Positions 2,507 through 41,589 of a stretch of 64,000 bases of DNA are shown piece after piece. Position 1 is the stretch's first letter. Every line of letters starts with the position of its first letter. The position numbers and the translations under genes were made by a program. Below the pieces are notes generated by a model. It searched no databases. It saw only the letters and a program-made list of their open reading frames with translations, and was not told the origin of the DNA. The stretch is from NCBI GenBank assembly GCA_977862235.1, contig OZ374558.1:124001-188000 (forward strand), given 5' to 3'. This DNA is from Dudresnaya verticillata (Eukaryota).

Positions 2507-2711
2507 TTTACGTTGTCCGAGGGTGCACGGTGAAAAAAATCAGTTGCACGAAAGGGAACCTGCAGGAGGTGTCCTCAATGTTCAAGGTCCGCAACGCAAA
2601 TTGAATGAACACACGCAGGAACTAGTGGGAAGTGGGCGGGTTCACCTTAGTCTTGCAGCTTCCGTTGCTGTTTGACTGCGACTCGCCGGCGGTCGACGAG
2701 AGAAAGGCGAG

Positions 2712-3249: not shown

Positions 3250-3875
3250 CCATGGTGTCCGATTGCTACTCGAGCGCCACTTCTCATGTGAGGAAAAGCA
3301 TGGTAATCCCTCTGTTGCATCGAATCCTGCTCGTTCTGATTCGGAGAGGTGGCGTGATGAGATAATGCACGACACCTCCGCGGCACCGACGCCCAACAAC
3401 CCGAGCTTCGTCGACACCAGAGCATCGTATAGACTTTTTCGTGTATAACGGTGGACTATTTATTGGGTTCGCATCCACTCCTCAAGCGTTTGACGGCTCG
3501 GACATTACCCCTCAACCGTGCTCTTCTCATGCTTCGTCTCGAATCCATCTGCGATTCAATCTCGGAATGTGGGCAAACGGCCCTCCATCATCGCCTTATT
3601 CGCGAAACCAACCCTTGCGAACTATATTCGATAGTTTTGAACATATATGGAAACATCGGCCACGGTTTCGATGGCGGGGCGCAACGTATCTCGAATTTTT
3701 TCGCTGAGAAGTGTGCTCACCAGAACTGCCCCATCTAGTGAGATCCCGTTTCTCACAATTCTTACCTCATTAGTGTTATGGTGCGTGGTAGTCTCAGTCA
3801 ACACGTGTAAACTTGTTGATTCCCGTTTTAGGTACAGTGCATATTAAGACCTTTTCAGCGGCTTACTCTCAACTC
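3250..3875 (+). mobile_element. 3' (RLE endonuclease) fragment of a CRE-like non-LTR retrotransposon; inverted diverged copy of 4036-4640
   Basis: QAFDGSDIT...SSHASSR...LNIYGNIGHGFDGG matches QAFDVSVV...SSHSSSR...MEIYGAMDHGLDRG on the minus strand. DNA match visible, e.g. acagtgcatattaag and gcttactctcaact. Confidence 0.7.
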
Positions 3876-4035
3876 TTCTGTTAAAGGAGTGCTTGTTGAT
3901 GATGTTTTGCCGACGGGCGACCGTGGCAGCAAACCTCTCTCTGAATCCTTTCAGTAATTTGTCGAATGAGAAACATTGCTTGCTGATGAACAGGTCTCAC
4001 GTGATATTTACAGAAGCATCCCTTTATTCTCAAAG

Positions 4036-6640: not shown

Positions 6641-6643
6641 AGT

Positions 6644-7056
6644 TTGTGTCTCAATGCGTCTACACTGGTGCAAAGACCTTACTGGGGACAGCGAGCCCTG
6701 CCGAGCGTCCTGAAGCAGCAACAACCCCATACACCATCTACCCGAAAGGGGTTTCTACGGGTCTGTGCAACTTTTAGCACTATATTTGGCACTTCACTGT
6801 TTGGGGCTGAACCATATGGTGTTACCAAATGTATAGGTTCTGGAGGGGATATAAGCACTACAGTCTAGCTTAGACAACCCCTCCGTCTCCCCTAAGTTCT
6901 TTCCTTCGTTCTCTCGCCCACCCACCCTTCATCTTTCTCGACTTCAAGTCCTTCCTTCGTTTCCATAATTTCTGTTGAGCATTCTTGCTGTTTGTTGTTA
7001 GTCATTGCATTCGACTACTCTTCTTCTGCAACAATAAGAGTAGTTATTTCATTTTC
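6644..7056 (+). repeat. ~415-bp repeat, copy 1; candidate terminal repeat of the adjacent DIRS-like element
   Basis: Near-identical to 11784-12199. Contains a TATA-like GATATAAG, a CT-rich tract and an AATAA signal near its end. No TSD. Confidence 0.85.
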
Positions 7057-8301
7057 ATTGCACGTTCAGCCGGGATGAGATTGCAAATCAGTTATGGAAA
7101 CAGCCACCGAGCGGGAGGATATGTGGTCTGACGTAATGTGCACTTGGAATGCAGCACCGTACAGAACACGTGGTCCTGTGTGGGGCATGGTATAGGGCAA
7201 ATGACACTAGTAAGCCTGTCTTAGTGTCACATAGACGCAGTTTAATGCTATGTGTCCACCGCGGCCTTCTCCGTAGAGTGGTGCACGGGTGTGCTTTCGG
7301 GTAGTCGCGGTACGCCGGCTGCACCACATGGAGTCAAAGATCGCGGGCTCAGATCGGGCAGCACGGCCTTTCTCCGCAAGCTGTGCTCATCTAACACCAC
7401 TTACGCTTGCCGGCAGCTTGAGGCCTGGGGCCCTCACTCGGACGCAGACCTTCCTCACGTTTTCCTTTCTCTTGGTTTGGAACTCGTTTCACCTTCCTGT
7501 GCACTGGGAAGTCCACTGCGAACTCAGCTTCCGATTTATTTTCTGGATGCAGCACGCTTGGATCTTCCAGCAAGTGCACCGCCCCTTCATTCCAGCGTGT
7601 GGCTTCCCAGAATGCCTCAAAATGTCCGTGAGCTCTTCGATTCCGTCGACCTCCCACCGATCGTCTCATCAATTATGGATCATCTCCGAAATTATACCTA
7701 AGTCCCTCCCGCTCGCGTACATTCACACGCCGGTCATTACGGTCGTAGTCTTTCACGCCTACATGCCGCAGGCATGCTGGAATGGTCGAGCCTGAAGAAA
7801 GAGTCTACAGCCTACTTGGAGTTGGCTAACAAACTCACCATGACTTCTTTTTCTGTGGTAAAAGACTCAGCGAAGGACAGAATGATTAGCTGGCCGAGCC
7901 TCCAAAACGACGCTATGCCCGATCCGCCGCATACTGAACTTCCGCATCCTGGGGATTTCTCTCGAATCCGTAACGAAACTTACCGGCCTCTATCGGTATT
8001 CTTTCTCTATATCGCCAACATGTTTCAGAACATCCGATTGACGGCTGGGATGGCCACACTCTTCCCACTCCGCACTATTCCATTTGGAGACCTTCCGGGG
8101 TCCCTTCAACTGTCTCTCTCCAGTGCTTTGGGCTATCGCCCGAGACAGCAGGATTTGATCCGACCCCTTAAAGCAACGCTTCCCATGGGATTTAAATGGG
8201 CAGTACTAATCGCACATACATTCGTCCAAAGCTGTTATATGGAGGCTTTTCATTGCTTCGTTTCATCGTCGTGGTACTTTTTGTGATACCGGAAAGGTTC
8301 C

Positions 8302-9403
8302 TGTGGTGCAAATTGTCCCACGCCACTGGCGCTCTGTATCGTCCTAGACGGATAGCTCCCGTCTTTGACGTTTCTACCGCCTTTGGCGACTGGGATCGAG
8401 CTCGAGGCGCGAACCCGCTCGTGATCCTGTTTCCGCCGATTGCGCTAGTCATTCGACTTTGTCGGGCAACTTGGTCAAGAACCAGACTTCCCGCTCACAG
8501 CGGATAGTGACGGCAATGTCGGGTTGAGAGAACGCGTGAGGTGTAGTTACTGGGTCACGCTGCCGCGCCCCGTGGCATGCTTGCACACGTGGCACATGTC
8601 ACAGGGCAGCGGAGGACAATGGGACCAAGAGTCTGTAAGCGCGGTGCGTGAACACGTGTAGGTGTAAGCATTAGCGCGGCGCGCGCGGTGGCGTGGGCAA
8701 ATGTGTCAGGCGCACGGCTGCATTCCGAGGGCGCTTGTCAGACGCACGACGGAACGACACGTGTCCTGAGTTCCCGCGCGCCGCAGCGCCACCGCCGTCG
8801 CCCACGCAGCAGTATTAATACTTAGGTAACCCGTCTAGGACGTCACAGTAAACCCCGGCAAGCCGGCCTGCCTTCACACTTCGCCCCTTCGCTCGTTAGC
8901 GTCACTGCCGCTAACGACGTTGGCTACGCGTTGCGACGATCGCGCTTCCGCGTCAATGTCCGTCTTTGACGTGTATCCCCTTTTGTTTTCCCCCGAGAAG
9001 CTCGGTAGTTCTTCACCCCCAGCGCTCAAGAGCGGACATCACCGCTATTAGCGTGGGCTACGTGCCGGACTACCACGCACTCATCCACTCCGTCGTGGAC
9101 GTTTGTTTCCCCTTTATGGCCTTGGTAGCCGAATGCCCCTTCCCGCTAGTGTGTGCGTCGCCACCGCTTCCGTTAGGCAAAGCGGCGGTACCCCCGTCCC
9201 TCCACGTTCAACACCGTCTTTGACGTGTTTCCATTTCCGTCTTGTTTCGTTTCTTTGGTTTCGACCTACCTACCGCCCAGGGCGTTTACAGTCCGCCTTG
9301 TGGCGTTGTCCATGCTCTACCACCCCTACCGTCTCTGACGTGCTACCCGCCGGGTCTCGAACTGCCCGGGCGTGCTTTTCCGTCCTAGACGTTTTGCACC
9401 ACA
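8302..9403 (+). mobile_element. Solo LTR, 1102 bp (family A)
   Basis: Termini TGTGGTGCAAA...TTTGCACCACA with a perfect 5-bp TSD GTTCC (8297-8301, 9404-9408). Splits the DIRS RT between LPMG and IDD. Second copy at 53003-54101. Confidence 0.92.
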
Positions 9404-10789
9404 GTTCCCGTTTTGCTGCTTCTACATCAGGGTCACGAGATATTACACCTCGAAGAGCTCACAGTGCTGACCCTGCACATCATCGACGACGTGAACATGG
9501 TGTTCGTGAATTGGCCTGATAGAGAAGTATCAGCACTGCAAGCTGCCATCGAGTGCACGCTGGAGCGTCATTTCCTCCCTGTCAAGCGAACAAAGTCCTC
9601 CCCTCCCGGAGTCGTTGAGCGCAACTTGATGCCATTTATTGGTTGGCTGTGTAACCTGAGAAGTGGAGTGCTTCGTCCCAATCCGATCAAAGTGCATACT
9701 GCATCACAAGAGGTATCGAACCTACTCCTCTATCCTATCAGCCAAGAAAACGTGCGGACGACCCTTGGACGACTTGTGTGGATCTCACTCGGGCGTCGCC
9801 CACTCCTTTCTATACTCTTCCGCACCTTTCATTTTCTGCAGACGGACGCCCTTCCCCAAGTCCCTCCCGCAATGCAGCGGGCAACACGAAGAGAGTTGCA
9901 CCTTATTGCCACTCTCGCACCCCTATCCGAAGCCCGTCTCCATAGACCCACGTGGTCAACCGTCGTAGCCTTTGGCGCCAGCCAGGGCGCAGGGGCTGTC
10001 GTCTACGCGCATGTCGAATCAAGATGGATTAGCTCCCTAAGTCGGTTCACCACCTCAGTCCCTCTTCAACCCCAACCGCAGCACTCTACCAATGGACGCC
10101 CTTACGATTGTCCATCTTCCCTAAAGTTGGCGCATTTTGTGCACTCTCACGTCTGGAAGACCGCTTTTGTTCATTACTGGCGACGGACTGAGCACATCAA
10201 CGCATTGGAAGCACATACTGGTATTCTCGCCTTCGAGTAGGCTGCATCGTTTCCCGTCGCAGGCTCGCGTCGGCTCTTTTTGTAGGACTCCCTCGTTGCT
10301 ATATCGGCTTTCCGCAAAGGCCGTTCTTCGTCTCCCTCTTTATGCTTTCCATGTCGTCGTTATGCTGCTCTGTGCCTCGCACATGACCTCGAGGTTTACT
10401 TCATTCATGTTCCCCCTTCAATTAACCCCGCTGACGGACCTTCTCGAGGAAAGGTGCGTAACCATAGAGTCTCATAAACGGTTGAATTGCCAATTCATGC
10501 TGCACGACCCCACCGCCAGTGCGGGAACCACAGCATTACTTAAAACCATGAGGCTGGGAGTACAATTCAAAGGCCCCGAATTGGTGCCATTCGCGGAATG
10601 ATACCTAATGGGGTGTGCGTTGTAAGACCCTGGGCATGTTCGCTACCCCTGGTACTTCTTTTCATAAAGCTATTAGGGCACCATCTGAAAATCTAAACCC
10701 GTAACAGGGTAGTTTGTGAACCCTGTGGAGCATACTGAGGGGACGGAAGCGGAGAACGCGAAGGATCTCGAAGGGACAAGAAATAGAGT

Positions 10790-11654: not shown

Positions 11655-13110
11655 AATCCCACTAGAAACAATATCATTCAGAATTTTGTTCGGGCCTTCC
11701 TTGGTGAAAGCATCTGCCGGGTTTTATTGGGATCTAATAAACCTGACGTCTAATATCTCGCGTTCATCATAAGCATTTCTAGTTTGTGTCTCGATGCGTC
11801 TACACTGGTGAAAAGACCTTACTGGGGATAGCGAGCCCTGCCGAGCGTCCTGAAGCAGCAACAACCCCATACACCATCTACCCGAAAGGGGTTTCTACGG
11901 GTCTGTGCAACTTTTAGCACTATATTTGGCACTTTACTGTTTGGGGCTGAACCATATGGTGTTACCAAATTTAGAGGTTCTGGAGGGGATATAAGCACTA
12001 CAGTCCAGCTTAGACAACCCCTCCGTCTCCCCTAAGTTCTTTCCTTCGTTCTCCCGCCCACCCACCCTTCATATTTCTCGACTTCAAGTCCTTCCTTCGT
12101 TTCCATAATTTCTGTTGAGCATTCTTTCTGTTTGTTGTTAGTCATTGCATTCGACTACTCTTCTTCTGCAACAATAAAAGTAGTCACTTCCTTTTCACCC
12201 GAGGTAATGTCGATCATTAGACGCTTTTCAGCAGTGGATGATGCCTTGGTAATGACATCAAACAAACTCTTAGAATCAGTGAACATAGTGAGCGGAATGT
12301 TCTTCTTCAATATCTCACCAAGGTCATACTTCAGAGTAAATGCGAAGTCGATTGCGTCAGCAAAAGCGTAGGCCTCCCCTCCTAATACTGACCTGACAAC
12401 CCTCGGGCTCTTGTGACTTGAGAAATGGATTGCATTGCACTTTTCGGAAGCGTCTGTCAGTAGTACCAGATATCCAAGCTGGGATGTTTGGTCTTCGTTA
12501 TTGGCGTAAGAAGAGTCAGCGTATACTTTGAGCTTCAGAGTAGTCAGATCAAGCTTTTGGTACTCGACACCGAGGGCCGAATTCTTCAGCAGATGTTTAA
12601 TGATTCGGTTGAATCTCTTCACATAATGCCCATCGAATTTTTCTTCTGTAACCTGAGCTAATTTGTTCACAAGGAAGCAGATTTCTGGTCGGGAGTGAGT
12701 GACCCAGGATAACTTCGCTCTTCCGGACCTAAAATCTGAGAACGAACATTCCGAAGGGAGAATAGAGAGATTTCGGATGTAGTCTTCTTGCCCTGGTTTA
12801 AATCCGTCGGACAACGTTTTGACAGCAACTCCTGTAAACATTAAATTTTCAAATAGCCGTTCTCGTGACTCAAACTTCTTAAGAGATTTTCCCGAGAGTT
12901 TCAGGAAGTCACTGATTCCACAGAGTAGGGAGTCATCAATATAAGAGCCAGTCATACCTGCGAACTTTCCGTTAATGTATCTGAAAAACAAAGATACATC
13001 GCTTACAGTCTGCAGCATTAGTAGGTCCGTTTTGAGATGAAGTAGCATAGTTTGATTCCAATAATCTCCGGAATCGGGTAAGCCGTAGAGGGGCTTTGTA
13101 GTAGAGCTGT
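11655..13110 (-). mobile_element. Ty1/Copia RT-RNaseH remnant
   Basis: KPLYGLPDSGDYW, GSYIDDSL, YADSSYANNED, TDSKSLFD, KRLMIDITS, then after the insertion RNAYDEREI...NPADAFTK. PPT-like AGTGGGATT then TG at ~11654 marks a putative 3' LTR extending leftwards. Confidence 0.9.
11784..12199 (+). repeat. ~415-bp repeat, copy 2, inserted without TSD into the Copia RNaseH
   Basis: Removing it rejoins ...MIDITS-(T/A)RNAYDERE in frame. The flanks are not duplicated. Confidence 0.88.
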
Positions 13111-14000
13111 TGTGGTGCAAACGCGTCCGATGACGAACTGCACCTCCGGACCGTCCATTTTCCGGTGGGTGGCCGCTGGAAGCGGGTAGGGTGGTAGAGC
13201 AGAGGGAACTCGCCGAGGGCGGACTGTAAACGCCCTGGGCGGTAAAAGAGAAAACAAGAGAACAAAGGGGAAAAAGGAGGGCAGAGAGAAACACGTCGTG
13301 GACGCAGTGCGGACGCGGAAGCGCGGTAGGTCAGACGCTTAGGCCTCAAGGCTAGCGAGTAGGTACGCGTAGCGCGAGAAGGGTGGTCTGGACCAGGGCC
13401 GGCTTGCCGGGAGTTTACCTCAACGTCTGGGACGGATCAACTAAGTATAGAACTACCTAGCGGCGGCGGTGCGTGCGCGCGCGCCGCGCGGGAGCTCGGG
13501 ACACGTGTTGTCCCGAGGCGTGTCTGACACATCACGCGTAGGTCACCGCTCGAGCCCTTACACGTACACGTGGATGTACCTCCTTACAGCCGCACGCGTC
13601 CTGTGGGGCGTGCGATCTCGATCCGTACTAATCCCGATCCAATCCGGATTCGGGCCAGCCACGCGGATGCGCCAGGCTTACAGGCGCGTGCCTTACACCT
13701 CTTGATCCCGATTTCTGATCTCGATGCGGGATCCCGATTAGATCCGGATCCGGGCCACGCTTACAGCGAACGTTCCCGCCACTGTGCCATGCGCGTACGC
13801 GTGGCGCCGTGCAGTGCTGCGGAGTCGGGCGTGCGGTCTGTACGCCAAATGAGCCGTTTTGGCCCGGGTGGCCAGCGGCATGCATCGGTGACGTGTTTGC
13901 GCCGCGGGCGGGTTGAACGCGCCGTTGGCGGTCGCCCGTCGGTAGACGCGGACATTTCAACACGCTGAAAGCGAAAAAGGGGGACCCCCCTGGCACTACA
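13111..14000 (-). mobile_element. 3' LTR of a minus-strand LTR retrotransposon (family A-related)
   Basis: Termini TGTGGTGC...GCACTACA. A polypurine tract (GGAGGGGA on -) lies adjacent at ~14004-14011. Shares the GGCGGACTGTAAACGCCCTGGGCGG motif with family A. Confidence 0.8.
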
Positions 14001-19400: not shown

Positions 19401-22249
19401 ATCCTATGAACAGTTCTTCCCCCCTCGGCCACCGTTCTTTTCCTGGTATTGTCTTGTCCATTTACCGTCAAGACCACTAGAGGTTTGCGATGGCTCCTGG
19501 ATATGGTTCTATCTCTCTTTTAGTCTGGATTGGATTGAGGACACTTGGGTTCCAAATCATTTACCATATATCTCTGCATGTGAGTAGAAACACATACATA
19601 TCTATGTATGCCTTACTACTCACCTCTTATTACGAAGTGTTAAATGCGTCGTTGGAATTGATGAGGGAGATATTTCTAGTTGATTGACGTCTACACAGGG
19701 CCAGAAGCCCCATCTGTTCCGCGCATGTTTTCGACCCACAAGTGATGTCGTGAACGATAGAGCGCCTTTATCGCGAAGAAACGCTGGAAAATCGAGCTTG
19801 GGTGAAAATGATTAGGACTGGGGGAAGTACCATGACAGGTACCATCGCAACAAAGTTGCCTATAGCTCTCCCCAACCAACAGTTTTGGAATGATATTCGA
19901 TGTGTGTGGGAGAATGAGCCGCTCGGGGCTGTACTCCCTACACGTGGCGTGCACTTGCAATATACTGTAATGCCGGCGCGCACTGGCCTGCTATAAGTAC
20001 CAGAACATTGCTAGAAGCACCGCGGTGCGGTTTTTAGAGTTCCCTGTTATTGGCCGATTTATCATGACCGTGCGCACAGGCATGCGCCCGATTCGTGGGC
20101 ACGGTAATCTATTCTCGCATGCGCGAGGACGGTGTACAACCACTTATTTACTAACTGCAATTATTATGCTAACTGAGATAGCTTAGAATGGGAATAGCGA
20201 CGAAGGCGCTTTCGGCCTTCGTCATATTTATTGCGCCCCGACTAGTATGGGTCTGTTGAAAAGAACCCACAGTGGGTTTCGGGTTTGTACCCTTTTTCTG
20301 GTTTCCATGGGCTCTCCGTACCTTTTGCCCCTTCCAGTGCTTTTCGGACCCTCATCACGTACGACTACGTACTCTACGCAAGTTAGGGTGGGGCCGCCCC
20401 TTTCCCCTTTCATTTAGGTCCGTGTTCCTGTTTCCCTTACTTTTCAAGTGTCTACTAATCCCCTTTCCTGAGATACCCAAGTTAGGATGTCTGCGCCACC
20501 AGGACTGGTGATGGTATACGTGGGCGTTCGGTGTTCGTGCTTACGAAATCATAATGCGTGTTAGGAGTGGCACAGGAGTTGTGACGGACTGTCTAAGATT
20601 GACAGGAGCCATTCAAGAGGTGTAATGTTTACGTCTGAATTTTGATGAAATCTTAATGGCAGCTCCCTGGAAGGGATCAGGAAGCGATACGGGAATTCAA
20701 GCAGACATAATCTGTGGCATGAAATGTTTATCAGGAGACTTCGTAAGGGTCTCTTGAACTATTGAAATCAATCAGTTCTATAGATATTACTTTACGTTCA
20801 GTAGTACAGAGTGGGTACGGAATGTTTATTATGTTCCTGGCGCGTCTCCTGCCACCTTCGCGGTGCGGAGGACAGGCGGAGTTCAGTTTAGGCTGATTTC
20901 CCTCCACTCAAAAGTACATATAATGCACTTGAGGAGTTGCACAAGTAAACGCAACAACAAGGCAACACAAAGCACCAGTTCCTGACTCTCGTTAACGCCT
21001 TTGCCCATTTTTGGTCCAAAATGGAGCGGTAGCACTTGCAATAACGTAAATAGACCAAATAGTAATACGGAGTATCCAAGACTGGATGGTACACAGGTAC
21101 ACAATTCTAACCGATAATGGATTTCTAACGCGGAAAAGGCCATTTGCGCTAGTCATCTTCTTATGTCCATGTGGTTTTAGTTTTCGTTTCAAAAAACTCC
21201 TTTTTCCGTTTTTGGTGCTCAGTCTCCTCACAAGATGGATTCTGAAAGAGGGATAGACCTCTCCCCTGTCGAATTGAGAAGCTTGCATCCCACAACTACT
21301 ACATAGGGTCTCGAAAAACGAAGCTAGTACTCCGCACCAAGGGGCTCTGGGGAATTGTTTCGGGAACCGGCCAGAGGCCGCAAGATGCTTCTGCTCACGA
21401 CGATGAGAAGTTCCAGCGTCTCCATACTCACTATGGATAACTCAATTGGTGCCCGTGTAGTTAGCCTCTGTGAAGCTCAGAAAGTTTGAGATACTCTTGA
21501 GTATATGTTTCAGGTTATCTGGGAAGAATCCATTGATGCACATCTGACGCAGTACCAAGGTAGAAGACGTTTGTGATGATAGCGGGCACAACGTGTGAGG
21601 AGTGCATCTCCCAACTCGTCTTTGAGTCAATTATCATCTTGCAAGATGACGGAAGTTCAGAAAGTGAGAACGTTATTCGGCATTGTAACTGCAAACAGAA
21701 ACAAGAAATTAAACTACTGGAGACAACCCGGTCATATCAAGTTTTAGGGTTTCGACAACCCAGAAAGCCCGCGATACTGGCCTCTTGATGCAAATGAAAA
21801 CCCATAAGGTCGTTTCCGCAGCCAAAGCTCGAAACATGAACGGAAGGGAACAGAAGAAACTGATTCTGCTGACACCGCAACGAGTGGATCAGGCTTCATA
21901 ACGTTTATCTCAAAATGTGAACTGCTAACACTACTGTTCCTCCTTCGTCACCATATGAATGGTATTTTAGCAGAAGCAGTTTTTGATTGCTGCAAGAAGG
22001 TTCTTCGAAGCCATGGAATACGCTCTGCAGCTCATGGACAGACTCTCCAATCAGACTGGTTCGAATGAAGGGTCACGCGGCTTTGGCAGCGACCCTGTGT
22101 CAAGCTCTTGTGCAGCGCACAGGCTGCACACCGCCGCTTTCCGGCAACCGCAGCATAAGAGGACAGGTACGATCACAGTCCCTATTACTTGAGGCTGCTC
22201 GTCACCTTTGCTTCATCTCCCCCACCCACCCCAAGCACCTTATTTATAT

Positions 22250-25200
22250 CCCTAATGCCATTATTTACTGATCGGTATACTGATTCCAGACTTCAAAAGG
22301 GCACTAGTTCGGCGCACGGCGACGCGTCGTAGTATGGATGACATAAATGCATAAAGGGTGTTTCTCAGTGACGCATGACGAAGTTTCGGGAGCATTTATG
22401 CAGAAACCGTCCCACAGCAAGCTGTCAAACTTGAGTCGCCAGGCACAATTCCGAGGCCCTTAAAAAGGCATTCTGATCACTATACTGATCAATAGACGCA
22501 GAGAAAAGGGTTCCCGAAGCACTACAGATGCCGTGTGTTGACAATCCATCAGACGGACGGAACCGGTTTTTTCTCGCCTCTGCCTTTGCACAGGCCGCGT
22601 AGAAGGGCTATCACTGCCTGCAGATGTTGTTTGTGCCTGCAGCATTCTACCCAGAAGTCGCTTAGAGGCTCGTCGCGGCGTTGCAGGTGTATCGGAATTT
22701 GCTCCCTTTGTCGGGGCGTACTTTCTGGATTGTTCTCCTCTTCATTCCCTCCTCCCGCTCCGTCATCTGCTGCTTCGTTTCTATCGCTCGTTGAGGTGCC
22801 TGCAATGCGAGGAGTCTTGTGGTGCTTGAATAGCTTGGAAGAATGCCAGAGATCCCAGCAGCTCTTTCTCAGCCGCGGGTAGGTCCTCATGCAGAGCGGC
22901 ACACTGCAAATAAGGCAGGAATAGGTCGAACGGTGTCCCCCCATTCACCCTTGTGTTGTCCACACATGACACTGTAAAGATCTGGGCCTTGTTTGGGTGT
23001 GTGGCCGGGGACCCCGAAGCGAAGCTTCACACCATCCGCGCTATTAAAGAACATCATCCTCTTCCTTTTTTGCGCCTTGGCAATAGCTACTAATCTCTCA
23101 GCCTCCCTCCTGGGTAGTGGAGCACGCTCTTCCGCTTCCTGTCTTCCTTCTCGCATCGTTAACGTCTCCGCGTAGCACAGAAGCTTTTTATACACATCGT
23201 ACATGAATTCAGCAGTTGTTTGGACCTTGTTTAGCTAGCTACGAAAGTTTTCAAGAGACTTGAAAGTTTGTGCTGACTCCAAAAAGTCCTGGCGTTCAAA
23301 CATCCGCCACGCGAAGAAAGCATTGATTGCCACCGTCTTGAGAGTCTGAGACACAATTTTCTGTTCCCACTTAAAATGCGACGTTCAGCTGCAGAGAATA
23401 GCCCCTTGTTGTTTCGCTCTATCCACGTATGCCTTCGTTTTAGAATAGAACGATTGTGGGGCGTGTTTGAACAGCTTGAGGGGCAGAACTGTGCCGTTTT
23501 CTGCCACGTGCCGGTCGACGATGCTCCAGAAGCTTAGCTGACTAGTAAGCATAGGATGAATGTCGCTGGGTACAAACGCCGGAATACCCGCTCTCCATCG
23601 TGAGACGAAGCAACTAGGGGTTCCGTAAGAGTCTTAATTGTCTCATAACAGGACACTTGCACGCACTCGGGACACTTAATAACAACTGTATACATAATGC
23701 CGGTCTCGGCGGCCGCGACGTAGATCGCATAGCCGAAGCCCAGCACCAACATCTGGTGCAAAAGCTGCCCCATGTGCTCTTTTGGAACGTACTTTAGAAA
23801 CTTGTCATCCCCGACTTCGCACTGTATCGGTTCAGAGGTTGATAACGCGACGCTCTGACCGAGCGTCGACGCAGCCACTCGCGTCTTGATTTCAACTGTA
23901 GCAATTACCAGGGTATTATCCGAGCCAGGTGCTGAAGCGGGCGCTGGGTCGATACCGGTATCGGAAACAAATAGCTGGAGAGAATCCTTTCTGAGGACGG
24001 CTATGCCGTCCGGAGAGCAGACGAGGTAAGGGGGTTCTCTTCGAGACAACAGCCCAGTCTCAAAGACCTCATTCAGGAAAGGAAGCGCACGCAATGCGGC
24101 CAGCACAGAGTCCTCGTCCACTGTCCCGCGCATCATAGCCTCTGTAGACCTCTTAGACGAAAACCACCCGTCGTACAGAGCCTTGAACCACTCCTGTGAT
24201 GTATTCTCTTGTCCTAAACCCCCAAGGACCAGCGCGGCCCGTACCCTATCGCTGCTCAGCAGCATCAGTCCTGCGTTCGTGCCCGTCCCTCTAAACTTCC
24301 GGAGCACGAACCAATCTGCACAGCGTTGCCCGATAGTGAGAGGCACACAGTTCACCTTAATCGCCATTTCCAAAATGTCCTTCTGCTCCACAATGCGTTC
24401 TCCCTCAGTGCCCCGCCTCGTATACAAAACCTTGTTAAACAAATAGTTCGGTTTGGGAACAGCTATCCCCGTGTTCAATCTTTCTTGAATAGGGGCTGGA
24501 ACTGTATACATGAACCTTAAAACCTTTGCGAACTTCTCTGTTCCCCGCTCGCGCACCGTAACAGCGGTAACTCTCTTTTGCCCAACCCCCGCCGCAGCCG
24601 ACGCTCCGACATTCTTGGTTGCGAATAACGCTTCCGGCTCGAGCGCCGGGTTATCGTCGACAACAAACTCTCTCCGTCTGTCCAACTGCACGTTAGATGC
24701 AGTGCCACCACCCCTTTCCTCCCTCCCATCTGCTGCTAAGACTTCTGCCGCCGTGTCGGCTGTGTCTTGCTCCTCCTCCACATCACCCCTTCTGAGGTTA
24801 AGATAAGAAGAAGCCACAAAGGGGTGCACGCGGAGAAGGTGGTCGGGCATTACGAACACTGAGCTGAAGCCGAACTTAGTCAGAAGCTCCATAACTTTCC
24901 CTTTGCCATAGCCCCTATCGGCCGTGACTATACAAGAGTTGGTCGCACCCTCCCCGCAACCCTCCGTCAGCACCTCAAACAAGCGCCAAACGGAATCAAG
25001 TTCAGGTTCTCCTCTTCGTCGGAAGTGCAGGGCGAGAACAATCCTAAACAAGGCATCAGCCACTGCATCTGCAGAGTGATCCTCTTTGTCTGCCTTTCTC
25101 GCGCTTAGCATCTTAACTTGATTGTCCTCTGCTCGCGTGCCGTAGGGATCGTCGTCCAATGTCACAAGGAGGTAGAGTGGAACGAAGAATACCTTCTTCG

Positions 25201-26537
25201 TATCCCTGAAAGCCAACTTCTCAAATTCCCCAGGTGTTGCGTCTGGTCGCGCTGCGCATTCCACTCCATTTACCAGTCTCTCCCACGGCCCGTAGCGGAA
25301 TAGGCCAGAATTTTGTCTGAGATTAACCGTACCGTATCGAGAGACGGTGTGGAACTTCCAGACTGACGTAGAACATCGATCGTTTTGCGGAAGCTGAAGC
25401 CAGTTGTGTGCGACAACAGCAGTACCGCTACATAGCGGTGCATTTCCGACAGTCTAAGGACATCAACGTCGAGCGCACGCAGCCTAATGAGCTCATTGAG
25501 CCACTCCATGAGCTGTAAAAGGACCTTGTTCATGAAAAAATGACAAACCCACTCCTACTGGGCGTGATGTCTCTCACAGCGCACTCTAGCTTGACCTTGC
25601 CCACAGCCGTTTTGCACAGGATCCTCGCGCGCTCTCTCAAGATCTTGTCGGCAAAGGTTTTCTCCAGATTTAGTGAGATGCATGGAGAAGTATTTAGCGT
25701 CTATCCTTCACTGGCGTCTGCCCTGTTAGTGCGCGCACTTCGCCCGATACGTGCGCCACGTTCCCTTCCACGACCTCTACCACGACCACGCCCCCTATCT
25801 GCCCCCTGCCTCTCCCCCTTCCCCTTGTTCCTGAACGTCCAACAGTTGCAACTTCTGCATCTTGAATCGCGCCTGGTGTCTCACCGGGCAGTGCCACGGA
25901 CGGCGAGTCGTTCTCAGCGCCGGCCTGCGTATTTAATCCTCGCCCCTACCCCTCCCCTCGCTTCCCGTTTGACCAGCTGCATGTTGCTCCGAAGGCGCTG
26001 ATACAGTCCGGAGTACATGCGGCGCGGCGTCCGAAGGGGACGATACAGTCGGTAGTAGATGCGGCGCGGCGAGGATGGCCGTTGAGTGTCCGTTACTCGA
26101 TTCCGGTCGCAACTTTTCGGCGGACACAGTCTCGTCTTCTTGCGCCATGTCCGATGGAGTAGAACGCGCTTGCGGAGATACCCAGTTGCTCTGTGCAAGA
26201 AACGGGAAGCCCTCAACAATGCGGAGCGCGTAGCGAGATGATGCGGGAGGCGGGGGGAAGGTCGTGCCGTCGGGATGCGCTGCATCTAGCACCACTGGCA
26301 GTAGATTTGCGAGATGTTGACGGATTTTGGATCTGGAAGCAGTGGCCGGCTGCTAAAACGCAAGAGATTCTTTTGAAGATCAAGCCAATGGGATTGAGGG
26401 GATTTTAGAAGACAAAAATGGGTCAAAGTGACGCTATTCTGGGCCCTTCATGATCACTATACTGATCCTTGGGCGTGTAACGGCAAAAATCGAAAAATAG
26501 GCTATGATCACTATACGGATCAGTAAAAGCATTGGGG
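22250..26537 (-). mobile_element. piggyBac-like DNA transposon with ATAT TSD
   Basis: Termini CCCTAATGC...GCATTGGGG flanked by ATAT (22246-22249, 26538-26541). Imperfect ~40-bp TIR. Subterminal TGATCACTATAC(T/G)GATC at 22474, 26451 and 26505. Confidence 0.85.
22750..25700 (-). pseudogene. piggyBac-like DDD transposase with inserted YqaJ/lambda-exonuclease domain and C-terminal Cys-rich domain
   Basis: VTLDDD (~25155); VTADRGY (~24920); YqaJ-like block WFVLRKFRGTGT...MMRGTVDE...SPDGI...VEIKT...QLLHQM (~24320-23710); FYSKTKAYVD (~23425); CLICSVPLC...CWDLWH (~22840-22915). Several frameshifts and stops. Confidence 0.85.
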
Positions 26538-27570
26538 ATATCGTATTTATTTCGAATGTAGTAAGAACCTACTCCTCTGGGCGCCAGGCAGCTCGATGCG
26601 CAATGTGTGATTCCGCCACGAGGAGTCTCGACTTCCTGAAGTTTCGACACTAGCCGGATTAAAACCATGAACCTCTGGTCCTTGGCTCCAATCGAAGAGC
26701 ATAATGCAGAATGGTGCAGTGATTTCGGTTACACCTCTCATATGACCAACAGCCGAACATACTTAACTGCCCAGGATATCAATCAAAGCCAATCATCTCT
26801 AATGGTGGGAACGGAATTACAGTTTCCCGTTGCTGCCGTTGGTGACTTTTTCTGTGTCGCTAAAATCGGCGACCATAACGTTAACATCCGAACGACCAAC
26901 TTTCTGCATCTTCCAGGACTCATATGCGACCTCCTCTCAGTTAGTCGTCTCCACAAGCATGCACGTCGCGTTATCTTGGCAATAGATACGAACGGTCAAG
27001 GAATCTGTACTATGTCAGGTTTCCATAGCGATAAAGTCATTCTTCAAGGTCATAAACATAAGGACGGACGGTATCAAGTCAGCACGAATCCAGAAACGTC
27101 GGTAGCTAACACGCAAAGTGCTGCTTTTGCGTCGAAGACAGACAGAATCTCTGGCACTGGCGACACGCTAGCCCTGAAAACTTCAGCATTCCCTTCCACT
27201 GGTCAATGGGGTGGACATATTGCAATGTAAGTTACCATCAAAATGGGATAAATATCTTAAGTGAAATTCGACTGGAAAGGTGCTTTTTGCGGCCTTAGGT
27301 GAATGCAAAATGTCTACAAAACCCTTAAACCTTGTCTACTCCGATTTAGTTGGCCCCTATCGTTGTCGTTCCCTTAAGGGTGCTCGGCATTTTGTGACTC
27401 TACTCAATGGCAACAGTTCCTTCTCCCTCGTACGTTTCGTCTCCTGGAAGGGCAACACCAGCAAAGAATTGGAAGAGATGATAGAGGAGTTGGAAACTTC
27501 ATTCGGATCTAAGTTGAAATGGCGTAAAGCCCGTCGTGTAACCCTATATGATTACGACCCGGAGAGCTCC

Positions 27571-28493
27571 TGTTGTGCAAACATTCGCAGCGGGAAAGCA
27601 CACCCGAGCAGTTCGTGACTCGGTGGGCAGGACCGCCTGTGGCGGTATTTCTAGAGCTGGGAGCAGCGCCTTGGGCGGACTTTAAACGCCCCAGGACCTA
27701 AAAGAGAACAAAAAGGACGAAGAAAGAAGCACCTCAACGACGGGGTCGAGCGTAGAAGCCCGGTAGGTCAGACGCTTAAGCCTGACCTAGACAGCGGTAG
27801 GGTACGCGCATGCGCGAAAGAGAAATCAAAACCAAGACCGCCTTGCCAGGGTTTACTGTGACGTCCTAAACGGGTTACCTAAATGTTACTACTAGCATGG
27901 GGCGGCAGCGACGGCAGTGCAGAGCGCGGGACCTCAGGACACGTGTTGCCCCATGGTGTGTCTGACAGGTACCATTCGGCATGCAGCCATGAGTCTGAAA
28001 GAGTTTCCGTGTGCCGCCCTGACGGGTGCTTACACACCCATGTGCACACGCGTTCGTTACAGGCGTGCGCACGTTGCCGCACGCGTGATCCCGATCCCGA
28101 TCCCGATTCACTCCAGCATTACGGCGCCAGCATTACATTGCCATGGATTCAGATTCCTGATCTCGATGAGAGATCCGGATCTAGTCTGGATCTGGGCTAT
28201 CCTTACAGGTTCCTGCCTTACACTACCGTTGATCCCGATATCACCCGGATTCGTACCATCGTTGGCATGCGGCGCTCCGGGGGCCACGTCTGGGGCTGAA
28301 CAGTACCGCCGCACCGCGAAGTGCGGCATCCGTACGCGTGTGGGGCGTTCTGGCACAAAGGCGCCCAGAGGCATACGTCTGTGCCTTGTTCGCGCCAACG
28401 GCGAGTGAGCGCGCCGCCGGCGATATCCGTCGGTTGACACCACCGCATAATACGCTCAGAGCGAAAAGGACCGGGTCCTTCCCTGGAACTACA
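27571..28493 (-). mobile_element. LTR (probably solo), related to 13111-14000
   Basis: Termini TGTTGTGCAAA...GGAACTACA, inserted in the Copia integrase. TSD is degenerate (GCTCC/GTGCC). Confidence 0.75.
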
Positions 28494-29220
28494 GTGCCCG
28501 CATCAAGAGGCTACGTACTGATCATGACGAGTGGTTCGCCTCAAACAAGTTCAAGATATGGATTCCGAACCGAGGTACAGCTCACGAGCTGGCCTCTTCG
28601 TACTCTTCCGAATCTAACGGAAAGGCTAAACGGATCAACTGTACTTTGTTATATATGGCTCGGACCACGCTTACGGCTAATTCAGGTATTCCTTACCATG
28701 AATCACTGTGGGTTGAATTTGAACATGGCTAAATGCCTTCGAAACTGCTTGTATAACCGTTTATGCAATTCGTACGGCAAGAATCCGTACGAGGTTATTA
28801 TAGGTGAGAAGTCAGACCTAGCTCACCCTCCCAAGTTTCGCTGTCGGGTCTATTCACATATTCACAAAGCTATTAGGAAAAGAAATTCAAACCACACGTC
28901 AAGGTAAGCTTCCTAGTCTTATATGAAAGGAGTCTCAGTTACAAAGTTGACTTGGTTACGGGTGGAAACGTTGTTACCTCCCGAGATGGCATTTGCGAGG
29001 AGCCCTACACTGTCCTTACCGCCGATTCCGAACCAGAAGTGGACACCGAACATAGTTTTATGGAACTACTTGGCTCTCAGGATGATGACACATGTCTCTC
29101 GGATATTGTGGAGGACTCCGATGAAGAAGTAGGAGAAGAATCCGATTACGAAGAAGCCGAAAACCGGGACAGTACGTTCCCGAATCCCGTTGACACTGAG
29201 AAACTTTCTCCCTTCCCGCG

Positions 29221-30014
29221 TGTGGCATAGACATCAGATCGAACTCAAGTCTAGTGCTGCCTGGTACGAGTGAGAGTACCCTAACCCGTATATGGGCGGT
29301 GTGGTGGTGGTAGATTGGTGATAAATCGGGGTGTCGGCCTCGCGCGCCGTAGAAGGTCTCGGATCTCAAGACATAGATGTCTCAGTGCGCACGAGGCGTA
29401 TCGTACGCGGACAGCAGCAGCCGGATACTAGTGTCCTCGTCGTGGGGTTGACACGAATCCGAAGGCGGGAAAGGAAACAGAAAAGCCTATAAGGCTAGGG
29501 AAAATGGAGAAATCCGTAGGCAAAAAGAGCATGCATCGAACCTGAAAAGAAAGGGACAAGCTGCAGTGTAGGTCAGTGTTTGTCTGCTTTACATACCCAT
29601 GGGAGACTACCATCCTTGAATAGGCTAACTTCGCGTCAGTGGTGGTACCAACCCTGAAGGTAGGCCGTCGCGCCTCGACACATGTCGACAAATACGTGTA
29701 ACGGCTATCCGGGGGCGCGCGCAGGCGTAAACCCGCCGCGTTCAACGGCCCGATGTCGGAGTGCGCGTGAGGGACAGCAAGGCGTTGGATCGTCGCTTAA
29801 ATAAAAATCTAACCGTACACGCAAAAGTTAAACGTAGAAATTGCACGAGTGTGAGAATTACATGCGTACGCATGGGTGCCATATAAGACGTGCTTACAGC
29901 TCCAGCAAGGCTTTGACGCGACCGACTGACAGCGTGGCAAAGTGTGGCACGGCCTGTCACAGCGTGGCATAGCATGGAACAGCGGGGCGTAGCTGGTCCA
30001 ACATCTATGCCACG
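29221..30014. mobile_element. LTR (probably solo), family C
   Basis: Termini TGTGGCATAG...CTATGCCACG. Flanks CCGCG/CCGTA are compatible with a CpG-decayed TSD. Similar to the 44268 and 57898 LTRs. Confidence 0.7.
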
Positions 30015-30849
30015 CCGTAGTCATCAATGAGTGGGAATAACATAAAGCATCGGTACTGTTCCGCGAATTGCTCGGAGGTATATTGTACCATGCAGACACT
30101 ACCCGTCCAGGCGCGTTTGCAACTTCACAACTTTCGTGTTTCATTCAAAATCCTTCTCAAGCGCACCGGAATTACGCCAAGTACGTGTTCCGTTATCTCA
30201 AAGAAGCACACGAGAATGGCATCTCGTTTGGATTAAAGAGCAAAGTCCGCATCGGTTTGCATGGCTTTACTGACTCTGACTTTGCCGGATATCTCGAAGA
30301 GAGAAAATAAACAATTGGATTCGTTTTCTTGAGTTATGCCAGGCCCATTCCAAGGCGTAGCAAGAAAGACAGTATAGTAGCACAGTATATTATTGAAACC
30401 GAGTATAATACGACTTCATTTGCCGTTCGTGCGGCTTTATGGCTTCGCCGCCTGGCCAAAGAGTTTTGCAGAGTTTCCGACGAGACTGTGACGTTATATG
30501 CAGACAATCCAGACACGATAGCGCGGGGCAAAGGACGGTGTCTCCAATAAACGCACAAACACATCGTCGTCAAGTACCATTTCATTCGTGACCATATCGG
30601 GAAAAGGCCTTCTACGTACAGTACATCTCAACTGAGGAAAAAGTGGCAGCTTTTATGACTAAGGCCTTGCAGAAATATAATCATACAAAGTTTTCAAGTA
30701 TGATGGGGATCTCAGTCGACCGTTGCTGAGGTCAAGTGGGAATGTTGGAATGGTGTTCGATGTATGACGCATTCATCAAGGTCAACAACTATAGCATAGG
30801 AATGTAGGAAGCTGGCAATGATAGAAGTGAGGCAACTATGTTGCAATGT

Positions 30850-31400
30850 CATGTAGGCGACTCTCGGGGAATTACCACACGAAGATGACTCTCCTGTATT
30901 AGATGCGACGGTGCAAAATGTATCGATAGCACTTGTACTACCGTATTAAGACGACCCAGAAACAAGGCGTAGCCCAGAATGGATGGTACAAAGACACCCA
31001 ATTCTAGCAACAACGTAGCATATTTCGTTCCTTGTCTTCCTGAGAGCATTATCCGTTTACCCGAGGCTTAGGTAATGTATAATCTTGGCTGTGGACTCAA
31101 TTCTGTCAAAATCGTACACCTTTCCTTCCTTTCCATCAAAGGAGAGCTTGTGTTTATACTTTCCTTCTACTACTGAACGTGCCTGGTGTAGAGGCACTAC
31201 GGCATGCCGTTGGTGACGTTGGCAATGAAAATATTCACCAGTCACACCTGCCCATCTTGAACTATTGGGAACAATCTAAATGTTACCGGGAAGCAACATA
31301 AAATCGGTCGTTCACGGCTTGAAGCTTCCGTTCCCTCTAGTACTGTATCTGCTCTCTACACGGCCCCATGCACGCTCACTGGTTATTATCCCATATCATT
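30850..31400 (-). pseudogene. Possible Copia protease/pre-integrase fragment
   Basis: Weak motif order only (WHxRLGH-like and LVHSD..GP-like remnants). Confidence 0.3.
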
Positions 31401-38600: not shown

Positions 38601-39027
38601 GATCTTCCCTCTGCTTATTCCTCCTAATTGGAGCATTTTTTTAAACGCTACTTTGCAGTATTTCGCATTGACCTGTCATCAGGCACCCATGCTCGTTTTG
38701 GCCACCCAAGCTCGAATTAACGCACGCATGTGAGCCCAGAAAGCGCTGCTCATAATCGACTGACTACGGTTGGATTGCCGCTGGACCTTCAACAACGGCC
38801 TCTTTACACAAAAGGGACATATACTGGGTGGACCCAGAAAAAAACAAATCGCCACATCGCTACTTCTGATATCAATCCAGAAATTCAATGTTTTGCCAAA
38901 TCGCTAGAACGCCAAACCCGGGAATTGCCTTACTCACCAGCCGCCAATCCCCGGAATGCGGCGTGCCTTACTCACCAGCCCCGAACCCCCCCATCTGGAC
39001 AGGCAAACGCGCCACTGCCGCCGAGAC

Positions 39028-39927
39028 ATGGGCAACGACAATCCCGCCGGCATCGGCGCGGATCCCATTCCACAGCAGGCCCCTTCGGGCGCTGAGATCC
39101 TTGATCTCGTCGAAGCCCCTACCGCCGCTACAAATCCATCGCGTGGCGCCATCCCTCGAGCCGTGCAGCCAAGAGCAAAAACGCGCACACAGGGCGGGAG
39201 AGCAGGGGCTCCAAACTACTCATCTGACGATGTCACGGCAATGCTTGACATTATCGCAGAAATGGAGCCTCTCGGCTCTAACCACTGATCTGCCGTTGGC
39301 AAGAAGTTCGATGAGTGGGCTGTGGATAATTCGAGACCAAGCCGAGACAAAGACTCTCTTAAAAAAAAATCGACAAGCTCGCCAACAGCAAGAAGAAGAC
39401 CGGTAATCCGTCCTGTTCACCCCTCGTGCGCCGAGCTAAACACATTGCTAGAAACATTCAAAGCAATTGTGCGGCGCGTCCTCGGAAGTGATGAAGAAGC
39501 GTAAATTGGAATTGGATCTGATGCAAATAGCTTGAACGGAGGCGGACGATGGGAAACGGAAGAAGAGGATAGCGACGTTGGTGTACACGCCAACAAGCGC
39601 GCAGCGGGTTCAACAGGCGTTGCAACACCGTCGAAGCTCTCCAAGTTCGATACGGAGATCCTGCAGCACGTCGGAAGCCTTACCGAACATGTTGGAGCTA
39701 TCTCCAAGTCGTTTTCCAGATCGTGGAATGACGAAGAGATGCATTCAGACGCCACTTCAATTCGCAAGGTGGTTCAAGAAGAAGTATCGCAAGTAAGAGA
39801 GGAGGTAAGAGACATTCGACGCGACGTGCAGCAGGCCTTGCAACCTACACAGCAACTCACCGAAATGATGCTGCAAATGAAGGGCATCATCGATGGGCTA
39901 AATGGTACGAACCAAAAAAATGGTTGA
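39028..39927 (+). pseudogene. Harbinger second ORF (Myb/SANT-like DNA-binding protein), disrupted
   Basis: GGRAGAPNYSSDDVTAMLDIIAEMEPLGSNH*SAVGKKFDEW...RDKDSLKKK, with an in-frame TGA at 39286-39288 and a frameshift in the A-run at ~39361. Coiled-coil-like C-terminus at 39532-39927. Confidence 0.8.
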
Positions 39928-40106
39928 CACGCAGAAGCAACAGGCGCGAAATTTCGGAGGCCCTCCGCCGAGAAGCGGGGATCTGGGGGCGGAGCCCCCA
40001 GCCGCTGACGCACAGCGTCAGCGGTGGTGTTCTGGTGTGCTCACGCGCTTCCGTGATGTGCGTAATGGGTGCTAAGATGCGTAGCAGTTCAAATAATGCA
40101 AGATGT

Positions 40107-41321
40107 TTACATGTTCGTTTGCGGACGTCCATATGTGCTTCGTATCTGGTTAAGGCCAACAAAACGAGTACGAAAGTTAAACAAATGGCAGCATACGGTA
40201 AGAAGTCTTAGCCGTTTGTTTGCGTCAGCTGGTAAAGGCACTTTTAGGCGCGCAAATGGCCCTTTAATCGCTCTGATACCCCATTCTGCGCTTTGGCGCT
40301 CACTGGGCATGGCGTGTTGAAGCACAATGTCCACAGCAGCTAAATAGGAAGACTCAGGTATGTCAGAAGTTTCGTTCGTCTTTCTTCCACGTAGGACTTT
40401 TCCATTCGTGGCGTTACTATTGTTGACGAAAGCGCTATCCCCTAGTATCGCCATGCCGGGAGGGGTCATCTCATCACTGAGTTTCGGGTAGTACAGGCCT
40501 GATGCCATTGCCAGTTTGTTATCGTGCCAACTTCCCGGGAAGTTGACCGCCGCGTGTATCAGTTCCCCAAAGAAATTGAAGACGAAAAGGTTAGTTACTT
40601 CCACTGATTGCGTGTATCCTTCGTAGTAGGCATTCTGCATGTTTACATCCGTGTAATCGGCACAGGGCATACGTCCACCGTCCGTAACCGCAAATACTCC
40701 TTTAAGAAGCGGTCTGTTCCTCCTATTTCTTTCTAAAAGTGACGCCGAGGCCTTCATTCCTTCCAGACTTGGCCACTTGATCTCAAAGTCCGTATGATCT
40801 TTCCGTCTAACAACCCTGCAAAGAACCTCGAGACTGTAATCCAACCACACTCCAACGCTCGTAGACACAATTCCGAAGATGGGTGATAGGCTGTAGATTG
40901 TATTACGCGTTTTTAAGTACCAAAGTGACATACCCAACAAGTCAAGAGTGTTGAGAAGCGGCCTTCGACCTTGTTTCTTGATACCACGTCGATACGGGCT
41001 GCCAAAGTTGCACGCTGCGCGCTCACTTTCGAATAAGGGGAGAAGTTTTGCTGTAATCAGCTCCTTTGTGAAGTTTGTAGAAACGAGGAAATCATCCTCA
41101 ACACCGCAGCTTAGAATCTGTTTCCATGGTGTGGCTTGGTCTGAGCGCACTGGGCGGACAAGCGCTGCCCGTCGGTATTTCGCTGGACGTCTTGAGCGCC
41201 TGTCCGTCCTGCCACGCCTGCGCCGTCGCGACATTACCAACGCTGTTAGTGCAGCTGTTAGAGCCGCGACAGCGGATGCTAAGACTGCAGCTTGGGCACG
41301 TCGTCGCCGTGCTGCGGACAT
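40107..41321 (-). CDS. Harbinger (DDE_Tnp_4-like) transposase, intact 404-aa ORF
   Basis: AVTDGG, NFPGSWHD, ILGDSAF, RQSAEWGIRAIKGPF, CCHLFNFR. Confidence 0.92.
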   Translation of the reverse strand: MSAARRRRAQAAVLASAVAALTAALTALVMSRRRRRGRTDRRSRRPAKYRRAALVRPVRSDQATPWKQILSCGVEDDFLVSTNFTKELITAKLLPLFESERAACNFGSPYRRGIKKQGRRPLLNTLDLLGMSLWYLKTRNTIYSLSPIFGIVSTSVGVWLDYSLEVLCRVVRRKDHTDFEIKWPSLEGMKASASLLERNRRNRPLLKGVFAVTDGGRMPCADYTDVNMQNAYYEGYTQSVEVTNLFVFNFFGELIHAAVNFPGSWHDNKLAMASGLYYPKLSDEMTPPGMAILGDSAFVNNSNATNGKVLRGRKTNETSDIPESSYLAAVDIVLQHAMPSERQSAEWGIRAIKGPFARLKVPLPADANKRLRLLTVCCHLFNFRTRFVGLNQIRSTYGRPQTNM

Positions 41322-41589
41322 GGTGATGCTCCCTCCCGTGTGGTGTTCTGGTGTTCTGGCCTTATTTCTGCTGGTATGTGCCGCATGTAATCACAGTGCG
41401 ACTTATTTCTGCATCTGGCGATCTGGAAGGACCCCAGGGCTGCCCGCCACTTTTAAAGTGCACTGATTGGCTAAAATGTGGCGATTTGGCGATTTGTTTT
41501 TTTCTGGGTCCACCCACTGGTTCAAATGTTTTCCATCCCAGGCGGCTAATCTAGCTGCGTGGCGATAGCATAGTTCCGAGCTGGGGATA

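Follow-up and report, generated by a model that had tools for sequence, protein, structure and literature searches.

A dead piggyBac-related transposon of Dudresnaya verticillata from a family with a predicted lambda-exonuclease-like domain inside the transposase core

A 64,000-nucleotide stretch of the Dudresnaya verticillata genome (contig OZ374558.1 of assembly GCA_977862235.1, positions 124,001 to 188,000; hereafter the window) was found to contain a 4,288-bp DNA transposon at 22250..26537, with its transposase gene on the minus strand. The element is related to piggyBac, as judged from the catalytic triad, the Cys-rich domain and the ends in the sequence and from the predicted fold of an intact relative. 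Between the second and third catalytic aspartates, its transposase carries a nuclease domain of the lambda-exonuclease/YqaJ type, and comparison with relatives indicates that this fusion is old and family-wide. The copy at this locus is inactive.

A frameshift-aware alignment of the copy to the intact relative P0003 gave 463 identities over 1,023 columns, with four frameshifts (at about 25537, 25229, 23589 and 22939) and four stops (25701, 25270, 23385 and 23235). An active element at this locus was rejected on these grounds. The gene has the following parts:

22700..25900, minus strand: transposase-nuclease pseudogene, about 1,010 codons alignable to P0003
25148..25162, minus strand: first catalytic Asp (D1) motif TLDDD, from the sequence and the relatives' alignment
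24908..24925, minus strand: second catalytic Asp (D2) motif TADRGY, from the sequence and the relatives' alignment
23421..23447, minus strand: third catalytic Asp (D3) motif YSKTKAYVD (YSKTKGGVD in the family), equivalent of piggyBac D447
23520..24355, minus strand: lambda-exonuclease/YqaJ PD-(D/E)xK domain, limits projected from residues 453-727 of the P0003 model
22843..23006, minus strand: C-terminal Cys/His-rich domain, split by the frameshift at about 22939; weak zf-Tnp_2 match (E 0.11)

A single open frame holds D1, D2 and the nuclease, its homologous part running from about 25229 to 23590. Neither D3 nor the Cys-rich domain is in that frame, and the frameshift at about 23589 falls near the end of the nuclease domain. 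The original prediction, made from this DNA alone, was right to place the nuclease in the frame of D1 and D2, but the limits of that frame are 23534-25453 and not 23534-25264. The D motifs and nuclease motifs that it named were all found in place (for the nuclease, MMRG..E at 24113-24136, SPDG at 24005-24016, VEIKT at 23882-23896 and QLLHQM at 23750-23767), as was the C-terminal Cys-rich domain. All three catalytic aspartates are retained in this copy, and its decay includes a Ser at the first Cys of the Cys-rich domain and AY for the GG before D3. The Pfam YqaJ profile matched the window at 23741-24313 (profile positions 2-147 of 150) with an E-value of 3.5e-4 and 21.3 bits (cut-off 22), and DDE_Tnp_1_7 rose above its cut-off in none of nine window frames. 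Upstream of the alignable coding sequence, two 42-bp tandem copies (86%) at 25988-26071 lie in a low-complexity N-terminal frame.

A search with the window's open reading frame (ORF) revealed 26 relatives among 7,994 scored candidates, and a search with a family profile revealed 64 among 7,993. Gracilariopsis chorda and Chondrus crispus, both red algae, are the named sources of these relatives, which makes a red-algal host probable. Further distant members lie on seawater metagenome contigs, where the loci L001-L009 are nine of 158 pattern matches; relatives were found in 0 of 35 viral contigs and 0 of 28 prokaryote genome contigs. A look-alike cluster in the Atlas carries oomycete labels, with the phylum known for two members. 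At 50% identity, 687 clusters scored against the family profile at E ≤1e-30 and 4,377 at E ≤0.001; many of these represent fragments, and ordinary piggyBac or YqaJ proteins may account for the weaker ones. Many relatives are intact single ORFs of 1,000-1,400 residues in which D1, D2, the nuclease, D3 and the Cys-rich domain follow one another in this order, so that the YqaJ domain between D2 and D3, noted in the original prediction for this one element, is a family trait in intact relatives. In G. chorda, the family occurs on four contigs with proteins that are 94-98% identical, a similarity that points to recent spread in a relative, and a 1,022-residue member from this species is 52% identical to the copy described here. 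The G. chorda contigs hold PXF43284, PXF40039 (an intact relative), PXF45321/2 and PXF46951. The metagenome locus L005 encodes a distant member (3996-7448, plus strand) in which D3 is replaced by His and the ExK motif of the nuclease is altered. Its seawater contig of 31 kb carries a cellular-looking gene next to it; the member has no evident ends and is possibly a domesticated copy.

Residue conservation was assessed in a close set of 31 relatives (27 proteins of at least 800 residues and four locus ORFs) and in a distant set of 24 proteins of at least 900 residues among the 130 new ones within the best 150 profile matches. All 24 distant proteins align over the same motif order. In the close set, D1 is present in 30, D2 in 31 and D3 in 28 sequences, the misses being one alignment gap, two truncated sequences and one His; the distant counts are 24, 23 and 22. 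The nuclease residues, numbered as in P0003, are kept to a similar degree: W467, R471 and T476 in all 31 close relatives, D569 in 30, E534, S567, E603 and Q645 in 29, and K605 in 28, with most of the misses in L008, which is truncated, P0033, a gene model with a partial deletion, and L005, which is degenerate. Among the distant proteins, the W, the first E, the S, the D and the K are found in all 24, the second E in 23, and the R position holds R in 17 and K in 7. The PD-(D/E)xK core with the motif I Glu and the QxxxQ/Y motif that characterize YqaJ/lambda exonuclease is present. Mutation of R28, D119 or K131 inactivates lambda exonuclease (PMC12804191), and R471, D569 and K605 appear by motif to pair with these residues. 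Their retention suggests that the enzyme loads on 5'-phosphorylated ends. The distance from D2 to D3 is 436-557 residues in relatives having both and 499 in this copy. In the transposase part, the equivalent of piggyBac Y439 is Tyr in 29 of the 31 close relatives (the other two are truncated) and in 24/24 distant ones, and an Arg stands at D1+7 in 28 of the 31. Six Cys columns of the C-terminal domain are conserved in 25-26 of the close set (five are truncated), with a weak match to zf-Tnp_2.

Separate trees were built for the nuclease and transposase parts of 30 taxa, with L008 and P0033 dropped. Every one of the 11 nuclease-tree splits with support of at least 0.9 recurred in the transposase tree, and distances in the two parts were correlated at 0.86 (0 of 2,000 permutations). 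The agreement between the trees of both domains shows that the fusion is old and has been inherited as a unit.

The structure of P0003 was predicted with a predicted local distance difference test (pLDDT) score of 80.8 and a predicted template modelling (pTM) score of 0.73. Residues 39-852 of the model aligned with piggyBac (PDB ID 6x67) over 368 positions at Z 22.1 and a root-mean-square deviation of 4.0, followed by piggyBat (9c0f; Z 19.0) and Tn5 (Z 14.2), and the DDD triad is placed in an RNase H-like core with an insertion domain, as in piggyBac. The best PDB sequence match of the family profile was also 6x67, in the D447 stretch (E 0.001). Model residues 453-727 aligned with lambda exonuclease (1avq) over 203 of 228 residues at Z 14.0 and a root-mean-square deviation of 3.4; LHK-Exo and mimivirus R354 gave Z 13.1 and 11.3, and the seven best rows of a Foldseek search were all lambda exonuclease. 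The PD-(D/E)xK fold on which the original prediction depended is accordingly seen whole on the relative's model. A single-sequence PDB search of the nuclease stretch returned only artificial repeat proteins, which were judged spurious. In P0003, a beta-rich block (358-425) precedes the nuclease at the position that the native insertion domain occupies in piggyBac. The model suggests that the nuclease is appended to this native insertion domain, just before the D3 helix.

The ends of the element, which have no strand, comprise the following:

22246..22249: ATAT flank, probable target-site duplication, gene-distal, from the sequence
26538..26541: ATAT flank, probable target-site duplication, gene-proximal, from the sequence
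22250..22284: terminal inverted repeat, gene-distal, with the 9-bp tip CCCTAATGC and a 21-bp subterminal arm including the motif copy at 22269-22284
26505..26537: terminal inverted repeat, gene-proximal, with the motif copy at 26505-26520 and the tip GCATTGGGG
22474..22489: inner 16-bp motif copy, gene-distal end, from a motif scan
26451..26466: inner 16-bp motif copy, gene-proximal end, from a motif scan

The CCC..GGG tips are CCCTAATGC at 22250 and GCATTGGGG ending at 26537. Reversed, the latter reads CCCCAATGC, and the terminal 9 bp of both ends agree at 8/9. The pair CCCTAATGC / CCCCAATGC represents short terminal inverted repeats beginning with CC(C/Y), as expected of piggyBac. A subterminal inverted pair at 22264-22284 and 26507-26527 (21 nt, 90%) is the longest high-identity inverted pair of the region, and the spacer between tip and arm is asymmetric, being 4 bp longer at the 22250 end. 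A 16-bp quasi-palindromic motif occurs at 22269, 22474, 26451 and 26505, that is, twice per element end, and is confined to the element ends within the window (seven strand-matches against 0.11 expected; 0/100 shuffles). By analogy with piggyBac, it is likely the binding site of the Cys-rich domain. The motif had 0 matches in viral sequences, and three bacterial matches without a transposase were taken as chance.

ATAT stands on both sides of the only copy seen, as the original prediction had stated along with the CCC...GGG ends, and not the TTAA duplication of canonical piggyBac. ATAT has a frequency of 0.0031 per position in the window, so a matching right flank is unlikely to have arisen by chance. 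ATAT is probably the 4-bp target of the element, on the evidence of one copy. No second copy of the element was found inside the window, where a scan for the tip plus 4 bp returned the true end pair and one chance pair. Nor were credible ends obtained for the metagenome loci L001-L009; the same scan, which was unbiased, gave 9, 2, 0 and 0 weak pairs in L005, L007, L003 and L006, respectively, and the points at which L006 and L007 diverge revealed no clear target duplication.

How the nuclease might act can be considered against the piggyBac reaction, in which the first nick yields a 3'-OH that attacks the other strand 4 nt inside the flank, the resulting hairpin is opened, and the complementary 4-nt overhangs of the donor re-ligate without a scar (PMC7351741). 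As described in the same source, the insertion domain (372-433) lines the target-DNA channel, Y439 and R275 touch the hairpin, and the tetranucleotide is read by Y439 and N440 together with a pocket that accommodates the T-3 methyl group. Considering that the Y439 equivalent is kept and that ATAT is a palindrome sharing T-3 and A-2 with TTAA, we infer the same hairpin chemistry for the present family. We tentatively propose, at somewhat below an even chance, that the exonuclease removes the donor overhangs and resects the 5' strands of the break, which is then repaired from the sister chromatid or homologue; the donor site would thus regain the element, and the excised copy would insert at another place. 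The DDD core would nick each 3' end, form and open a 4-nt hairpin and join the ends to a palindromic 4-mer, much as in piggyBac. The nuclease, sitting at the end of the native insertion domain, would be turned towards the flanking DNA instead of the ends of the element. Its substrate would be the 5'-phosphorylated overhangs at the empty donor site, onto which it would load and which it would degrade, thereby blocking seamless re-ligation and directing the break to homology-directed gap filling; use of the sister chromatid or homologue in this step would give a net gain of copies. A matching overhang, as expected for a palindrome with the central T-3 and A-2 that piggyBac reads base-specifically, would not have to be trimmed, which weakly favours donor ends as the substrate.

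Several points weigh against this scheme and against the reading of the family that underlies it. Lambda exonuclease acts as a trimer. In contrast, piggyBac acts as a dimer (PMC7351741), and because of this mismatch lambda-like processive resection cannot be assumed. The equivalent of N440, the residue that reads A-2, is P0003 position 753 and is Ser in 26 of the 31 close relatives (three have Asn and two are truncated) and Asn in 15/24 distant ones, and the W465 equivalent is Trp in only 8/24 distant proteins; the hairpin pocket is therefore not identical to that of piggyBac. ATAT is known from one copy only, and rare non-TTAA sites, ATAT included, are on record for single ordinary piggyBac copies, usually with unequal sides (PMC5381638). 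Three stretches of the P0003 model have a pLDDT below 50, namely 206-213, 524-530 and the D3 loop at 758-760. Most intact relatives score below the Pfam DDE_Tnp_1_7 cut-off, which was passed by 0/15 close and 5/21 distant relatives; the nuclease insertion splits this profile. The YqaJ cut-off was reached in 6/15 close relatives. Among 27 nuclease-tree splits, 14 are shared with the transposase tree and 11 weakly supported ones conflict with it. Finally, the G. chorda gene model P0033 is without part of the nuclease, and L005/P0165 has His at D3. The Ser/Asn difference at the N440 equivalent, which is Ser throughout the red-algal-type clade, is a candidate marker of target-site differences.

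Alternatively, the nuclease may trim the 4-nt 5' flap on the non-transferred strand of the transposon after hairpin opening or strand transfer, as Cas4 does with prespacers beside Cas1. Donor and target 4-mers would then not need to match, targets would vary, and ATAT would be a preference or chance. This possibility draws on the 4-nt 5' overhang of opened piggyBac ends (PMC7351741), on the presence of the monomeric fold relatives Cas4, MGME1 and Dna2 among the structural matches (Z 7-9) and on the changed N440 equivalent in the close clade. However, the sole site is a palindromic 4-mer alike on both sides, as predicted by overhang pairing without trimming, and the trimming enzymes are poorer structural matches than lambda exonuclease, whose whole fold aligns (Z 14). 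We consider flap trimming unlikely.

A further alternative concerns the target site only. The flanks may not be a 4-bp duplication, but either part of ends reading ATCCC..GGGAT that duplicate AT, or a one-off non-TTAA insertion of a TTAA family. Because ATAT is its own reverse complement, in a single copy a 4-bp duplication looks the same as longer ends with a 2-bp duplication, and a duplication the same as an inverted repeat. Duplication of AT, at A/AT/T, is known from ISL2EU, the other YqaJ-bearing group (PMC4482050), and the single piggyBac copies recorded at ATAT would be precedents for a one-off event (PMC5381638). However, piggyBac and IS1380 both have 4-bp duplications and CC..GG termini (PMC10045372), and the predicted fold is that of piggyBac. 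Moreover, the reported odd sites mostly differ between sides (PMC5381638), whereas both sides match here. On this evidence the alternative is rather doubtful, and a 4-bp ATAT target is preferred.

It is also conceivable that the hairpin step is replaced by cleavage of the second (non-transferred) strand by the PD-(D/E)xK domain, which is the task of TnsA in Tn7. TnsA and TnsB provide a known precedent, in which a PD-(D/E)xK nuclease works together with a DDE enzyme. The residues of the nuclease vary no more than the DDD triad does, as would be expected of an essential step, and no aromatic residue was seen at D1+15, the offset of piggyBac Y283, in a comparison made by eye from the offset. On the other hand, the N-terminal W-x3-R-x4-T-G-T motif and a Ser preceding PD, which are typical of end-loading, 5'-phosphate-dependent exonucleases, persist in 29-31 of the 31 relatives. 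The hairpin contact Y439 is retained as well. A second-strand cutter is therefore quite improbable. Hardly any credence can be given to the YqaJ block being a chance nested insertion or an assembly chimera in this copy, which is decayed and sits among nested repeats, since intact single ORFs with this domain order come from many independent sources, the trees agree and the residues are conserved; where the original prediction had allowed that other copies might lack the exonuclease, the relatives carry it.

The transposon was inserted into an older mobile element:

21013..31006, plus strand: decayed Copia-type long terminal repeat (LTR) retrotransposon receiving the insertion, recognized by an LTR-like pair, Pol_BBD and DUF4219

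The insertion point lies between the gag-like and protease regions. The LTR-like sequences at 21013-21109 and 30910-31006 are 74% identical, the right side contains Pol_BBD (26640-27227, E 7e-7) and the left side a weak DUF4219 match (21246-21437, E 0.034). No homologue of the interrupted Copia protein was found and the Copia flanks are full of stops, and a reading-frame test of the duplication length was therefore dropped. A further nested insertion is apparently present near 27667-27998. The window is rich in other transposon remains. A Harbinger-like DNA transposon at 38825-41516 has 39-bp inverted ends (95% identity) and an intact 427-residue DDE_Tnp_4 ORF (40110-41390, minus strand). A 1.1-kb inverted duplicate (8301-9405 and 53001-54102, 95%) lies near reverse-transcriptase-like and recombinase-like ORFs (9389-10237 and 47946-50325), which by eye suggest DIRS-type elements. 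A 417-bp direct repeat (6641-7057 and 11781-12197, 97%) adjoins a Copia-type reverse-transcriptase fragment (12158-13330, minus strand). We also noticed a 380-residue ORF without a Pfam match at 1400-2539 (minus strand), that by eye resembles SEL1-type repeats, and a 1.35-kb stretch at 3268-4624 whose similarity to its reverse complement is 65%.

Scarless excision by piggyBac leaves no copy to be gained from repair of the donor site. An active-looking exonuclease kept over deep divergence suggests control of donor-break or transposon-end processing, and the family makes the role of accessory nucleases in eukaryotic DNA transposons, including ISL2EU and KolobokE, testable in one protein with a few point mutants. 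If ATAT is the target of the family, intact relatives would serve as piggyBac-type vectors for a different target site and as a natural test of tetranucleotide reading. The most far-reaching interpretation is an undescribed, widespread lineage of piggyBac fold with a phage-type resection exonuclease wired into its core, which copies itself through gap repair and whose red-algal branch has shifted from TTAA to ATAT. Taken as a whole this is unlikely; if true, it would provide a transposase naturally fused to an exonuclease and, as a tool, a piggyBac-type system that uses a new target site. The locus itself contributes a red-algal-type clade and a single ATAT site, and its weight is limited because the copy is dead and the family may already bear a Repbase name.

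With respect to catalogued groups, the family is moderately likely to be piggyBacX of Repbase, a likening by class name. The piggyBacX entries presumably come from Chondrus and oomycetes. PiggyBac-A and PiggyBac-X of Dfam, which are atypical classes within the PiggyBac group, are the piggyBacA and piggyBacX of Repbase and are listed without description (PMC7805219, supplement 3, rows 60-61), and DNA/PiggyBac-X repeats have been called in the clubroot genome (bioRxiv 10.1101/2025.07.30.667784). No description of a piggyBac with an internal exonuclease was found in searchable papers, a body that does not cover Repbase Reports and Kojima's review; the available passages of PMC5718144, PMC10045372 and PMC6431247 do not mention the fusion, and the supplements of PMC8969392 have no piggyBac entry. 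It appears that the family is probably catalogued, yet unexplained in searchable papers.

Compared with known systems, the element most resembles piggyBac, with which it shares a predicted RNase H-like DDD core and helical dimerisation domain (Z 22.1 to 6x67 and 19.0 to 9c0f), the YxxTKGGVD motif of the third Asp, a C-terminal Cys-rich domain, CCC..GGG ends, an asymmetric spacer, palindromic subterminal repeats and four identical bases at both flanks. It differs in the D2-D3 distance, which is 101 residues in piggyBac (D346-D447; PMC7351741) and is lengthened in the family by the added nuclease of about 275 residues. It also differs in protein size (1,000-1,400 residues against 594, with 12% identity over the aligned core) and in having ATAT instead of TTAA at this site. 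ISL2EU (PHIS) is likewise a eukaryotic DDE transposon with a YqaJ nuclease, but there YqaJ is a second ORF, the duplication is AT and the ends are GG (PMC4482050); membership in ISL2EU was rejected in view of the single fused ORF of the relatives, the predicted piggyBac fold and the CCC termini. KolobokE, another eukaryotic DDE transposon with a YqaJ / lambda-exonuclease-like nuclease, carries it downstream of its transposase domain and possesses RR..YY ends (PMC9587614). Membership in Kolobok was rejected because the nuclease lies between D2 and D3 and the element has CCC..GGG ends and ATAT. The nuclease itself resembles lambda exonuclease (Red-alpha), LHK-Exo and mimivirus R354 in the whole predicted fold, the PD-(D/E)xK core and the N-terminal W/R motifs. 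However, those enzymes are free-standing recombination nucleases, whereas the domain in this family is tethered inside a transposase.

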